From a virus: DNA of 64,000 bases. Under the pieces are notes generated by a model, which was not told the origin of the DNA, searched no databases, and saw only the letters and a list, made by a program, of their open reading frames with translations. Below, one piece after another: positions 35,095 to 40,989 of the stretch (position 1 is its first letter; each line of letters opens with the position of its first letter). The stretch is taken from IMG/VR virus record IMGVR_UViG_3300033150_001583, positions 75,585 to 139,584 of that record; one strand, given 5' to 3'. Made by a program: the position numbers and the translations under genes.

Positions 35095-36147
35095 AATTTG
35101 CCTCCCTCTACAACTATCCTCTAGCTTAAAGAGGTGGATTGAGCATTATATGTCTTTGATTAATCCTTTTTGTCTTCTAGTATATCCTGAACTATCAACT
35201 GATTGCACAGATAAGTAAACTCCAAGAAATTCTTGTTATCTCCAGTAAGTCTATTATATACATAACCACAACCTTTAACCATGCCAGTAAAAAATTTGGT
35301 TGCATCAATTTCATCAAGTTTGTAGTGATATATTGGATTACCACCATCTTCTTCATCTTTAAATAAGGATAAAATGCTATCTGCTACTGCTAAAGCATAC
35401 TCATCGGTTTTTGTTAACTTCTGCAATTTAGTCCCTCCTTTGTATTTTTTGGAATATATAACTAATCCCAGCGTTTCTTATCCATTAAACTGTTTTTGGC
35501 TATCGCATACTTTGCTATAAGAGATTTAAGCTTCTCTATTCTTTTCTGATAATGTTTTAAATCCCTAGCCAAACATTCTATTGCCGAATCACATAGTGAT
35601 ATTGCTTTGTTGTACGCTTCTTCCTTCGTTGTAAAATGGGTATTTTGGTAAATGGTATCTCCCTCGCTATCTTTAAGTGGATATTCCAACCTTTCAACTT
35701 TCACTTCAACTATTTCATAAATAGAGTCTTTTGGACTACAATTCTTAACCTTATATACTTTTATTGGTGTCCCCTCCTTTGTATTCTAAACATAATACAT
35801 GTTTTCTCTGAAATGTGCAGTTTATTTAAAGTTGTATTTTTCAATTTCTTTTCGTGCATTTTTTATTGCCAGGATAGCTCTTATCCACAATGTTACTGGA
35901 AAAAATACAACTAGCATTACATTGAAAATTGCACAAAGTAGTAACATAAGACCCTTAAAACCTTCTAGAAACTGTTCTATAATATCCTGTAAAGCATATT
36001 TAAAAAAACCATTTTTAACATCAAAGAATACATATTCTAAAACATTCATTTTAGCAATGTTAGAAGTACAGTTTCTTATTTTGCCATTATCAAAAATATA
36101 GTCTTTATTCATTCTAACCACCTACGCATTTTCTCTGGAATGTGTAG

Positions 36148-36444
36148 CTATGCAAAATCGAATACTTCTACCTCTTCGCCATTATTAAGTGTTACTATTC
36201 GCCCCTTTCCTAGTGTTCCAAGTAATCCGTAAGCTGCCCAGTCGCAGCCTTTGTTTCTATCGTACCTACCTATGCAGTTAGTTGCCGCCCTATCGGGCCT
36301 ATCTGCTCCTGCATCTTTAAATTCCTTAACCGAATTAATTCTACCACATCTAGGACACTTAAACTTCCAGTTTAAGAAATTATCACCGAATTTATTTTTA
36401 CCTTCGGTAAGCCATTCTTCTCTCGATTGATGTATCATTCTCAA
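36148..36444 (-). CDS. VVA0879-like phage protein
   Basis: W..EG...FG....WKFKCP.CG...CIGR...GCDWAAYGL pattern. Confidence 0.7.
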   Translation of the reverse strand: MRMIHQSREEWLTEGKNKFGDNFLNWKFKCPRCGRINSVKEFKDAGADRPDRAATNCIGRYDRNKGCDWAAYGLLGTLGKGRIVTLNNGEEVEVFDFA

Positions 36445-38821
36445 CCCTCCATGTTTTCTTTGAGATATACATTACCATCCTGGAAATTCGGGTAACTGAT
36501 TAAACTCTTCTTCTGATATTTCTAAACACGATATATCCCAAGGCCCCAAACTTGCACCCTCGCCTACTTTAAGTTTTGCCAAAGATTCTATAAAAGGGTC
36601 AATATCTTCTCTTGTGTAACCCGCTTCCAAAGAGTATTCGTCTAATTCAATCTCTAATTCTACTTTAAAATCCTGGTAATTAGGGGTAACATAACCACTA
36701 CCCATATCAGCGTGGGAAATCTTGTAGACTTTCATAATCAATCCCCTTTCTGCACTTTATCTTTGGAATGTGATATAAACTTAATATTCAGAATGAACAA
36801 AAGGATTATAATCTTTGGGTAATCTCTTTCCACATATAGGACAATATTTAAAACGTATATATTTAGTTTCTCCGCGTTTTGACAACCGCAACTCTTTTGT
36901 ACTTTCATACCATTTCTTTTTTGCAATTACAAAAGGTCTAATATATGCCTCAATAGCAAATCTAAGTCTTACAAAAGCATTCCTGCCATTCTTATAATTA
37001 TCCTCTGATAGTTGTCTTGCTAGCTTTTCCGCACAATTACACATAAGTAAAACCTCCATTATTTCACATAATCTTTAAAATGTGTAATTAATCATCTCTA
37101 CCCTCAAGACTTATCTTTATGCCATTATGTCTTTCGGCATATTCATTAAATTTAATAATGTCTTTTTTAATTCCAATTAAAACCCCGCATTTTGAAACAC
37201 CAGGACATTCAGATTTAGGTATACAACAGAAATCACAAGGCCCTCCATCATTCCACCATTCCATTTTAATTCTCCTTTCTATTACGTATTTTACACAAAC
37301 TTCGCAACTTTATAAGACATATATTTAGTATGGTGCTATATTACACAAACTATAAGATTTTCGCTTATCAAGCCTCCCTATACCTTTCAGGATACATAAG
37401 TATATTATACATTTCTATCTCAGGTTTACCACTATCAAAACAAGTTTGTGCTATGGCAGTATTCCATATTCGAGTATAGTAACGAGAATCACCAAACTTC
37501 TTAGTAAAATCAATTATTTTATCTTCAATTTCATTACTTAACTCTTTAGCTTTATTGTCTAACTTTTTAGCTTCGTCATTTAACCTTTTAGCTTCATTGT
37601 TCAGTCTTCTAGCCTCATGAAATAAATCTTGTGCCAAAGTATCGTACTTCCACCATCTTTTAAAGTCATTTGCTATTTCTTTAGCAAAAGCTTCTTTAGA
37701 ACTATATTTTGTTTCCACAATCAACCCTCCATATTTTCTTTGGAATACGTATCTTGATTGAGCGTCAACACCTGCTCTATGGGTCGAAAGTAGTAATGCC
37801 CACCCCAATCGTAACGCTCAAGCAACCAGTCAAACAGCCACGATTCCTGTAAAACCGCTATAATATCCTCGTTACCAGACCAACCACCAGTATGATATGC
37901 CCACACATCGACAACCTCACCGCGTACTTCTACACGTTCATGCCCACAGTAATCAGGGTGGTAATAGTTCTCTCTCAAGGCCGCATAAAAAGCCTCAATT
38001 GCTCTCTTATAATTCTTTGATTTCACTTCTTTTCTTAAGCATTCTAAAGAACTTTTAGTTGGATAACCATCCTCATTCCACTCAATGATTCTTTTCAACC
38101 TGCTCCCCCCCCTTCGTCACATTTTAAAACCCTCTGCTATTTCTTTAGCAAAAACTTCTTTAGAATCATATTTTATCTTCATAATTTTTGCGACAAACTC
38201 ATTTACAAATAGAAATCAAGTCCAAACTTCCCAATCCTCCACAATTACAGCTTCTGACCGCATCCACAAAACTATTTCTATTGCCTTGTCATTTAAATCT
38301 TGAAAGTCTTGAGCATATTCTTCTGCCCACCAACTTTCATATCCAGGAAAAGTTGGATGTATAAGGTTATCGCCCCAATAACCAACAAGCCACTCACCTT
38401 CACCAACTGGGTTTTTATATATATAAGCAGATCCCTGAACTAGGAATCTCAATTTATCGTTTTTTTCAAGTTCAGGGAACTTTTTTACTGTTTTTGTCCA
38501 ATCATAAATTTCAATATGTCCATCCGCTCCCATATTCATACCCCCCATTTTTAATTTATTGCAGAATAAACATTTAACGCGATGTTACTCTAGGAAGCAA
38601 GTTAAACTTAGATATAACATTTCCATCCTTTTTAAGAATATAACATGCATCATGTATATCTAATATAAACTCAAACTCCTTATTTTCGAATCTTGGCTGT
38701 ATCTCTTCTTTATATTTTTCTGGTTTTTCAACTGCATCGCCAAAATAAGGTTTCAACGCTTCCCTTAACCATTCTTCAATTTCCTGTGCCTTTATACTGG
38801 CATACATTTCTATAAAATTTT

Positions 38822-39304
38822 CTAACATAATTGACCCCCCACCAGTTCAGGATTCTTATAAATGTTACCTATTATTTCAGTATTTTCCATATCAAATTCA
38901 CTTAATGGAAGATTATCTCCATAGTCACCATGTGTTGCAAATGTGGTTCTGACTTTATGATTCAACAAAGGCTTAATTTCAAATCTCGCTTGCTTTTCGT
39001 TATAAAACACGACTCCAGTGTAATAAACATTCATAGTGATATATCTAACAATATCTCCTTCATATACCTTCTTGCCATTTTTGTCACGTAAGCCAATAAA
39101 TTGCATTTTTATAAATCGTCTATCATCCACCCATTCATAATTACCGCACTCATCCAATAAAGCAAGCGAACCATCTGCAATACTTATAAATAACCCTTCC
39201 ATGTCCATCTCCATGAGTCTACCACTGACTGGTTCAGGATAATTCCAAGGCTCATACATTTTTTGTTTTTCTTTGTCCCAAATTCGGAATTCAAGAGTTC
39301 TCAA
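38822..39304 (-). CDS. YopX family protein
   Basis: FRIWDK, MQFIGLRDKNGKKVYEGDIV and EIIGNIYKNPEL motifs. Confidence 0.9.
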   Translation of the reverse strand: MRTLEFRIWDKEKQKMYEPWNYPEPVSGRLMEMDMEGLFISIADGSLALLDECGNYEWVDDRRFIKMQFIGLRDKNGKKVYEGDIVRYITMNVYYTGVVFYNEKQARFEIKPLLNHKVRTTFATHGDYGDNLPLSEFDMENTEIIGNIYKNPELVGGQLC

Positions 39305-40989
39305 TACTTACACCCCCTTTCCATATTCCCACTCCACATAGTTCACCCTAAAACTCTTTACCACATTTCGGACATTTCCAATCTAATGATTCCATAAATC
39401 AACCCTCCATCAATTACTAAAACAATATATGTGCTTTACGAAATGGTTTTGTATGTGCAGCTTTCGGGTCAGACCAAACTCGTATACATATTGGGCCTAA
39501 CCAAGTTTCGGTAAGGAAATGTTTATACTTTCCATATCTTTTAAGTATGTGAAAATGCCAATACGGATATGGAAAGAAAATAACCTCCCATCGTCTTCTC
39601 CTCATTTCTTATCCCCCTCAAATTTTTGTTTAAGCCTAAGATAAGTTTCATACTCGCGTTTTTCTTGCATTTCTTTAGCTTTGCGTTCTCTTTCTCGTCT
39701 TTGTTTCTCTCTTCTCTCACGAAGCTCTGTAATTTCCTTTTCTGTTATAACTCCAGCTTTAATTAGACCATCAGTAATTTCATTTCTAACAAGTAAAATA
39801 TTTTCTACTTCATAACCTCTATATATATCAATTTCAGAATTTACATCATCAAAGAATTGTTGGAAAATCATAATACCACCATCATCCGTACCAAGAACTA
39901 TATATTCTGAAAACCATTTCATATGAACATACTTAATTGTTTTGCCAATCAATTTTTCGGGATCTTCAATAAAATACATAAACCAAACCTCCTTACGTAA
40001 TCCCAATACTGCACAGTATATTTACACATCTTTATAAACTGGTCTCCCACAACCATATTCCTCATCCAGTTTAAAGTAACTTTCTCCATTCTTTAATTCT
40101 CTCGCTTCAAAAGACTCATCTTTGTCCCAGTCTACATGAATCATATTCAAAGATTCGCATTTTGGACATGTAATACAGAAGGGGCAAGGCATTTTCTTTT
40201 TTCCAAGCGGCCCTTCTACACCCACCTCTAAATACATTCTTTCTTCGTACCCACAGCTTTCGCAACGATACAGCATTGACCCCCATACTTTAGTCATAAT
40301 TAACCCCCATTCTTTTCTTCTTTTTCTTTTTCAAGTATCCACAGCAGGGCTTTCCCTGCTGCGTCTTTGGATGTGTCAGCTAATCTTGCATAACGTAAAA
40401 ACATATTACCACTTTTACATAATTCAATACCGTATATGGTACCTAATTTATGCAAGCTCCACTCATACCCTCGTTTCTCAATCTCGGCCAGGAGTTGGTC
40501 GAGGCGAGGTAACCACATTCGACGATCCAAGAATTTCTGTGTAAGTTCATTAATAATCGTATCATTTGCTTCCTTTTGAAATATGAACACACCTGAAAAT
40601 TCGCCAGCAGGGTAACAGTAATAATCACCTTCTTTTGGTTCCCACTGTAATCCAGCTTCCTTCAATTTCTTAGCAAGCTCTAAGGAAATCACTTTTAACC
40701 TCCTCCTAATTTAAACACTAAAAGATAGTATTTAACTTTCTCATGGTATCTTTATCTTTAGCAACATAAGCGTTATATCTCCCATTTGTAAAATCATCTA
40801 CTTGTTCCAGTATCTTGCGTACAGCAGGTTCTCGTGCAGGGCCATGATCGTACCCCCGATATAAATAACATCTTCTTAACAAGACGGCCACCATACACAA
40901 CAAATGTTCTAACTGCTCATTTACTTCATGCAACTTAGTATTCTTAGCCTCAAATTCTCTAATCCTTTTTTCAACAGATTCTTGCGAAA

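Follow-up and report, generated by a model that had tools for sequence, protein, structure and literature searches.

The T4-type phages RB49/phi1, T4/PST and KVP40/nt-1 have repeated intergenic motifs known as promoter-early stem-loops (PeSLs). Homologous recombination between the copies is the proposed mechanism by which orphan genes are lost, gained or exchanged there, with a chimeric motif left behind (Arbiol et al. 2010, PMC2839356; Comeau et al. 2014, PMC4122927). A PeSL is about 100 bp long, and combines a strong sigma-70-type promoter with a stable, often G/C-rich, terminator hairpin (PMC2839356; PMC4122927). A second kind of repeat is the start-associated sequence (SAS) of the Cluster K mycobacteriophages, with its extended form (ESAS) (Pope et al. 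2011, PMC3203893). The SAS is a 13-bp asymmetric consensus, GGGATAGGAGCCC, with the Shine-Dalgarno (SD) core inside it, at a distance of 3-7 bp to the start codon; for SAS and ESAS alike, a part in translation or a partner that binds them has been suggested (PMC3203893). Here we analyze a set of ~20-nucleotide (nt) elements between small genes in a window of 64,000 nt, positions 75,585 to 139,584 of the IMG/VR virus record IMGVR_UViG_3300033150_001583, for which PeSLs and SAS/ESAS are the closest analogues. An earlier note, made from the letters of this stretch alone, had read the locus as an integron-like array of one-gene cassettes inserted by site-specific recombination. Integrons have an integrase, IntI (a tyrosine recombinase with an IntI-specific extra domain), an attI site and Pc, and circular cassettes are inserted at attI. 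Their attC sites, at the 3′ ends of the cassettes, are imperfect inverted repeats of 57-141 bp with R″, L″, L′ and R′ boxes and RYYYAAC/GTTRRRY cores.

Our reading, to which we assign a probability of roughly 55%, is that these short intercistronic elements, which are associated with gene starts, act in this lineage as joints, where recombination through a short core adds, removes or exchanges single genes or small blocks, and that they are kept for the expression of the downstream cistron. The virus record is complete (139,584 bp, with direct terminal repeats and 33.7% G+C), the window is its right 64 kb, and all the genes of the window run leftward. We call the full record of this phage G000, and a distant relative of 119.8 kb G001; L-numbers are compared loci, where L101 is G001.

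The element comes in two classes. Class A has seven copies in the window, all within 2.3 kb and all on the gene (minus) strand. An alignment of the copies has a conserved block of ~20-22 nt with 1-2 bits per position, and flanks that carry almost no information. The unit consists of a 5-nt arm (CACAT, TATAT or CGTAT), a 10-nt loop TYCARAGAAA, and another 5-nt arm that partly pairs in register with the first. Arm pairing in the seven window copies amounts to 80%, with C-G to T-A exchanges at two positions, on statistics that are weak.

Six of the copies occupy six consecutive spacers of 33-57 nt each, from stop codon to ribosome binding site (RBS), between 37088 and 35426. Element 1 (35439-35458, minus strand as are all that follow; TATAT TCCAAAAAAT ACAAA) is the weakest copy, and it abuts the RBS of gene 35160-35426. 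Element 2 (35798-35817, CACAT TTCAGAGAAA ACATG) lies 4 nt past the stop of gene 35822-36112, element 3 is found at 36125-36144 (CACAT TCCAGAGAAA ATGCG), and the final G of element 4 (36450-36469, TATAT CTCAAAGAAA ACATG) is the first base of the RBS GGAGGGTTGA. Element 5 (36753-36772, CACAT TCCAAAGATA AAGTG) comes after gene 36781-37044. The arms form 5/5 pairs both in element 6 (37065-37084, CACAT TTTAAAGATT ATGTG) and in element 7 (37730-37749, CGTAT TCCAAAGAAA ATATG), which sits inside the 3′ end of gene 37721-38098; this gene reads through the element to a stop codon that overlaps the next RBS. The gene calls, based on RBS and length, bear out the picture of the earlier note, in which six repeats lie between a stop and the next RBS and a seventh overlaps the 3′ end of a gene. 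Its seven minus-strand 16-mers are all present where it had placed them, save for the first copy, which is at 35443-35458, 3 nt away from 35446.

What stays constant next to the element is the downstream RBS and start codon: in most copies the RBS begins 0-2 nt past the 3′ arm. The position of the stop is not fixed, and in two cases the upstream open reading frame (ORF) reads through the element (window gene 37721-38098 and an ORF in G001), so that the unit is start-associated and not stop-associated. Thus the 16-bp repeat that had been described as following stop codons is a true repeat, but the unit is really ~20 nt long, and it is tied to the RBS and start after it rather than to the stop before it.

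Is such a short motif distinguishable from chance? We scored each site with a 20-mer matrix from which it had been left out, against 278,990 background positions of the genome. Five of the seven sites outscore all of these positions. A sixth has one equal among them, and for site 1 there are 13 positions that score as high; by this measure the motif is significant against the background. The 13-mer core, allowing up to 2 mismatches, recovers six of the seven sites and nothing comparable elsewhere on the gene strand. There is no further convincing class A copy in the 139.6-kb genome, and no other place on either strand resembles the element, which is why we dropped a link to the Cas12f guides or tRNA-like RNAs of the phage (the guide sequences themselves lay outside this comparison). 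One match at 33401-33420 (score 18) is probably due to chance; it falls within a coding sequence, and no start codon follows it. In a 9-mer enrichment of all 123 spacers the RBS and A-runs dominate, and the motif does not stand out. The significance of the motif comes from its length and its clustering.

Class B elements carry a different loop, YATGTTTARR, on arms that are similar to those of class A, covary, and have the same spacing. In G000 and G001 taken together, four loops match class B exactly. All lie on the gene strand and have 5/5 arm pairs, and their arm sets differ (TGTAT/ATACA, CACAT/ATGTG, CGCAT/ATGCG and CGCAT/ATGTG). The class B element of the window at 35780-35799 (TGTAT TATGTTTAGA ATACA, 5/5 pairs) overlaps class A element 2 by 2 nt and lies 2 nt before the RBS of gene 35462-35764; the resulting A+B composite has a counterpart of the same build in G001. 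Over 17 elements the arm pairing amounts to 78.8%, and covariation scores 0.291, compared with 0.189 in shuffles, of which 1 in 500 scores as high. The fixed place against the RBS, the single orientation and the covarying arms would point to a role in the mRNA. The stems are A/T-rich and 5 bp long, no element has a terminator-like site, and no Rfam family matches the array region. That the UUCC of the loop would mask the SD sequence was considered and set aside, as it holds for copies 1 and 5 only. We also observe (37033-37096) that the 5′ flank and arm of element 6 (AATTACACAT) can pair with the start of the downstream gene (its first 10 nt, ATGTGTAATT) in an 11-bp stem, which would bury the start codon (folding at -11.9 kcal/mol, z-score -2.0).

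The distant relative G001 has 45 of 217 proteins in common with this phage, at 24-65% identity (58% for the capsid protein), and the two are syntenic over the structural half. In G001, class A elements are present at three consecutive junctions directly after the RuvB gene, before different genes, and the homologue of gene 36781-37044 also has a class A element after it. G001 has in addition class B elements, the A+B composite just mentioned, and a second small cluster of elements near 108.5-109.4 kb. The arrays occupy different genomic neighbourhoods in the two phages. The G001 composite sits inside an ORF, and is followed by an internal RBS and ATG. This 141-amino-acid (aa) ORF (L101 10857-11282) holds the composite at codons 33-45, then GGGTGG and, after 6 nt, ATG; probably a real gene of ~88 aa begins at this internal ATG, and an upstream frame is fused to it.

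Megablast and blastn searches of 50,697 phage records returned no close relative of the phage of the window, only a 210-nt match of one gene to two Streptococcus prophages, and the Clostridioides phage pCD1602_4 has just 8 proteins in common with it. With a profile of the capsid protein we found one additional 29-kb fragment, without elements, among viral contigs, and nothing in genome and metagenome contigs. An exact-pattern scan of the viral contigs gave 71 single matches, with G001 as the one real case, and the same kind of scan of metagenomes gave chance matches only, among the matches listed. The array protein of gene 37721-38098 has no relatives in the viral contigs. Homologues of gene 36781-37044 in unrelated phages of higher G+C (L082, L089-L100) come without the element, and none of 80 other viral contigs with RuvB (1.09 Mb) has such an array. 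The lack of arrays in these contigs and homologues, together with the conservation in G001, indicates that the element is specific to the lineage, and that within it the conservation goes far beyond that of the flanks.

The evidence for exchange comes from contigs nearly identical to G001. Using exact-protein look-ups we recovered several nearly identical variants of the G001 array, and compared 10-20 kb. L101 and L103 are 99.7-99.8% identical except for one block, in which a single 130-aa gene replaces a 62-aa and a 141-aa gene; the two sequences part within a class B loop and agree again from the CAAAGAAAA of a class A loop onwards. Between L103 and L104 the identity ends exactly after the same CAAAGAAAA, and what follows is a different gene and a different integrase module. 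In L104 (1486-2931) and L317, everything downstream of the class A element (87-aa and 55-aa genes, a MazE-like gene, DUF932, the attP region and a 303-aa integrase) has been swapped for another gene pair and a shorter integrase on the opposite strand, so the element borders the exchange of an entire integration module. The L318 type, represented by six contigs, one of them from an NCBI assembly, has only RuvB, the 88-aa gene and the 87-aa gene, and lacks three genes. Its 41-nt spacer is an exact hybrid of the 5′ part of the first G001 class A element (A#1) and the 3′ part of the third (A#3), and we had predicted this hybrid beforehand from the length of the spacer. About 1 kb with three genes is present in L101 and absent in L318 between two element cores, and the identity between them changes at the hybrid joint from 87% on the left to 99.6% on the right.

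The differences of L103, L104 and L318 are the only structural differences in the 10-20 kb compared, and all of their joints fall in element loops. By our estimate the loops make up ~14% of the spacer bases in the G001 array, and the chance that all four joints would be within these 10-11 nt loops is ~4 × 10^-4, a rough figure that takes the joints as independent. Chimeric or hybrid elements thus stand at every structural difference among these close relatives, the element has the same anatomy in two very divergent phages, and it is conserved there before different genes. The earlier note had looked to related phages for changes of gene content with breakpoints in the repeat, and these are what the G001 lineage (L101, L103, L104, L318) contains. 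Support for a putative cassette-like gene turnover at the repeat comes from these relatives only.

How would such exchanges occur? They would result from recombination at the short core that each class conserves, which is CAAAGAAAA for A and the loop for B, and this would use general functions: either RecA and RuvB, which both phages encode, or slippage between direct repeats. A dedicated integrase would not be needed, as in the model proposed for the PeSLs of T4-type phages. The joints have just a 9-nt core in common, and recombination at short homologies can explain them. Selection within a single genome would not preserve a mere linker. The element would be kept because it helps to express the cistron after it, most likely in the form of a weak hairpin in the mRNA, to which a protein that regulates translation or processing would bind, and its use as a recombination linker would be a by-product of that role. 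The earlier note had offered an RNA-processing signal as its alternative to cassettes, and a signal at the RNA level is the reason for conservation that we prefer.

The parallel with PeSLs is close in several respects. In both cases repeated intergenic motifs lie between orphan genes in a plastic region and end at the RBS and start of the next gene, and in both there are insertions, deletions and replacements at the motif between close relatives, here among L101, L103, L104 and L318. A deletion leaves a single chimeric PeSL in the ORF192 case of RB49 (PMC2839356), which matches the L318-type hybrid. Unlike PeSLs, our elements are ~20 nt long, with a 5-bp A/T-rich stem and a conserved 10-nt loop of two classes; they have no sigma-70-type promoter consensus (59 promoter-like matches compared with 61 in shuffles, and no consistent -35/-10 pair), and no stable terminator or attenuator stem-loop (z-scores from +0.4 to -2.0). 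For PeSLs mini-circles have been shown, whereas the elements described here are known from contig sequences alone. The principle of recombining intergenic motifs is already known from PeSLs; what is new is the minimal 20-nt hairpin form and the two loop classes.

Other features of the element recall SAS and ESAS. Both are short repeats in one orientation directly upstream of the starts of some non-structural genes, both are conserved before genes of different families (across subclusters, in the case of Cluster K), and the ESAS is likewise an inverted repeat just upstream of an RBS, or rather of the RBS-like SAS (PMC3203893). In contrast to the SAS, whose GGGATAGGAGCCC includes the SD core, our elements have a different sequence and abut a separate, ordinary RBS; and the ESAS has arms of 17 bp with a variable 4-13 bp spacer, as opposed to 5-nt arms with a fixed and conserved 10-nt loop. 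In the passages of that paper considered here, there is no mention of a role as recombination joints for SAS or ESAS (PMC3203893).

Several observations weigh against the reading we favour. Since the arms alternate purines and pyrimidines, a partner slid by 2 nt also pairs highly. Folding z-scores range from +0.4 to -2.0, the predicted hairpins are weak, and the copies have no common minimum-energy fold. Two class A elements have almost no arm pairing, the third of G001 (1/5) and the L318 hybrid (2/5), and the persistence of this poorly paired hybrid in at least six samples implies that pairing is not essential for class A. There are only about four joints, of which three have the same core, and 9 nt is very short for recombination of the RecA type. 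For the seven sites of the window, turnover is extrapolated from the G001-type phages, as no close kin of its own phage was found. Finally, the expression role is one that we infer from the sequences.

Much of this evidence could also be that of a purely regulatory RNA element, a site for a translational regulator or for endonuclease processing, with joints that coincide with it since only spacers tolerate them. An element always on the coding strand, abutting the RBS, with covarying arms, and conserved across very divergent phages before different genes is what such a function would produce, and the Cluster K repeats are a precedent for repeats associated with starts (PMC3203893). We nevertheless consider it unlikely that regulation is the whole explanation, given that all four joints are inside the loops, which account for just ~14% of the spacer bases of the G001 array, that the L318 spacer is an exact hybrid of two non-allelic elements, and that the hairpins are thermodynamically marginal. 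Others of the same features recall an integron. As in integrons, small unrelated genes follow one another in the same orientation, nine in a run, without promoter signals of their own and each bounded by a structured repeat, the joints of gain and loss are inside the repeat, and the arms are conserved more by pairing than by sequence. Against this, there is no attI and no Pc, the unit is 20 nt with 5-nt arms, without R/L boxes or GTTRRRY/RYYYAAC cores, and it stands upstream of the RBS of each gene, whereas an attC is the 3′ end of a cassette and is read as a long folded bottom strand. Nor is there an IntI. The two tyrosine recombinases of the phage, at G000 2588-3418 and at window 180-1151, have XerC/XerD as their best match, neither adjoins the array, and with the integron integrase model TIGR02249 they score 140 and 78 bits, far under the cut-off of 265. 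The second recombinase that the earlier note had proposed to look for does therefore exist (G000 2588-3418), as an Xer-like protein and not as an integron integrase. We reject membership in the integrons, and in the absence of an integron integrase and of attC features an integron-type mechanism is not supported; of the gene-capture array that had been proposed, what stands is the turnover at the repeat, in relatives. A site-specific capture that merely works like an integron would have an enzyme read the folded element, with the arms as binding sites and the 10-nt centre as a crossover region that has to match between partners, and classes A and B as incompatible overlap types. The candidate enzyme would be the Xer-like recombinase beside the terminase gene, or an unrecognised protein. 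In its favour are joints in the central 10 nt of the elements, the direct orientation of every copy, arms that covary as if structure rather than sequence were read, as in attC sites, two loop classes on similar arms, which would fit two overlap types, and the conservation of the second tyrosine recombinase in both phages at 35% identity. Yet both recombinases are Xer-like by the scores just given, neither is linked to the arrays in a conserved way, and the phage has no serine recombinase and no IS200-type HUH enzyme. Known core sites of tyrosine recombinases have arms far longer than 5 nt and a centre shorter than 10 nt. Gene 37721-38098 of the same region arrived illegitimately and not at an element, and a fixed crossover position cannot be demonstrated. 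Capture of this kind thus seems quite improbable to us; if true, it would be a phage-borne functional analogue of the integron, unrelated to IntI/attC, in large phages.

There are two further explanations. As a DNA-level transcription signal, the element would serve a phage-directed RNA polymerase holoenzyme as promoter, or a phage DNA-binding protein as a stoperator-like operator. In some copies TTCCAA or TTCAGA resembles a weak -35, with TAGAAT or GAGAAT at a distance of 17-18 nt after it, and the motif is asymmetric and of single orientation, like stoperators (which PMC3203893 mentions). But promoter-like matches in the region are no more frequent than in shuffles, several copies have no matching -10, and a transcript from such a signal would lack the RBS of the next gene, since the putative -10 coincides with that RBS or start codon or lies beyond it; covarying arms would be unexpected, too, for a protein that reads fixed half-sites within one genome, and we regard such a signal as very unlikely. 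Least credible, in our judgement, is that the spacers are a functionless relic, decaying copies of one ancestral intergenic segment that was spread by the duplications and insertions which built the array. It would account for copies that are few and clustered, and for pairs, such as elements 4 and 7, that also share the 3′ flank and RBS. It does not fit a core conserved between phages with proteins mostly <60% identical, before unrelated genes, nor a 20-nt block with 1-2 bits per position against almost none in the flanks, nor compensatory changes in the arms.

The nine consecutive small genes that precede or follow the elements (35160-38098, minus strand, 58-125 aa) belong to one long leftward operon, and lie at 35160-35426, 35462-35764, 35822-36112, 36148-36438, 36472-36735, 36781-37044, 37088-37264, 37368-37718 and 37721-38098. 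BLASTP of the array-flanking proteins against each other finds no similarity, in agreement with the earlier note, which had called these genes unrelated. By Pfam and PHROGs, one array protein is a VVA0879-family zinc-ribbon protein and the remaining ones are orphans. Between 33.8 and 43.3 kb of the window there are no promoter or terminator signals above chance. A hairpin of 16 bp at 43349-43384, part of a CCCGCGAAAATTT-type motif seen there and at 34410-34426, marks the boundary of the operon that contains the array, and the next terminator-like hairpin after it on the gene strand is at 33793-33816. Elsewhere the phage encodes, besides RecA, RuvB and its two tyrosine recombinases, a ParM-like actin and CCA-adding enzymes; serine recombinase, RecT, ERF and an IS200-type (HUH) transposase were looked for in the phage and none was found. 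The XerC/XerD-like recombinase of both phages (G000:C1:2588-3418, minus strand, and G001:C1:6496-7311; 35% identical) adjoins the terminase genes, and dimer resolution may be one of its roles.

Not all the gene traffic in this region passes through the elements. A remnant of a gene start, 21 codons at 38118-38183 (minus strand), matches gene 37368-37718 over the first 20 codons of the latter, at ~80% identity as judged by eye. This duplicated start implies that the 125-aa gene 37721-38098 came in by illegitimate insertion, with its left joint away from any element; on such evidence the region would also gain genes through ordinary illegitimate recombination, in at least one case. Similar short remnants of gene starts, of the ATGACTAAAAAAGAAATTCTAATAG type, are seen on the minus strand in three spacers of 41349-42391 (junctions 42391->42207, 41636->41549 and 41409->41349). 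They look as though one gene start had been copied and truncated several times, and this suggests that insertions followed one another at places of a similar kind. The YopX-like gene 38822-39304 has a gap of 214 nt upstream of it, and in this gap lies a 15-codon ORF with its own RBS (MESLDWKCPKCGKEF, then a stop; 39347-39394, minus strand), probably the stump of a truncated zinc-ribbon gene.

Gene 35462-35764 has an unusual start. Its strong RBS (AAAGGAGGGG; 35704-35770, minus strand) is followed 6 nt later by an in-frame ATA, and the first in-frame ATG, GTG or TTG comes 20 codons further on, without an RBS. The gene likely has a non-canonical ATA start, or else there is a sequencing error. 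With the ATA start the protein begins MKVYK, the same as the product of gene 36472-36735.

A second repeat family had been proposed to mark the junctions at 37286, 37336, 38185, 38555 and 40005. It does not hold up: there are two exact copies of GTTTGTGYAAWA, at 37289-37300 and 37339-37350 (minus strand), both inside the single 103-nt spacer 37265-37367, so what had been taken for a family is merely a two-copy repeat within one spacer. The GTTTGTGTAAWA pair (37289-37350, minus strand), with copies 50 nt apart, lies outside the element family. At up to 2 mismatches GTTTGTGYAAWA has 32 matches in the window, compared with 39 expected from shuffles, and none of the 32 is a site at 38185, 38555 or 40005.

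How long runs of small orphan genes in large phages are swapped without wrecking their neighbours is only partly understood. The PeSL model explains such swaps for T4-type phages of Gram-negative hosts, and here we see the same outcome, clean swaps of single or few genes with hybrid motifs, in a very different phage of ~140 kb, with a linker that is five times smaller and has neither promoter nor terminator. The element could serve as a simple marker of cassette boundaries in the annotation of related metagenomic phages. Its defined length of 20 nt, its covarying arms and the existence of two loop classes also make it amenable to mutations that would tell a part in expression from one in recombination.

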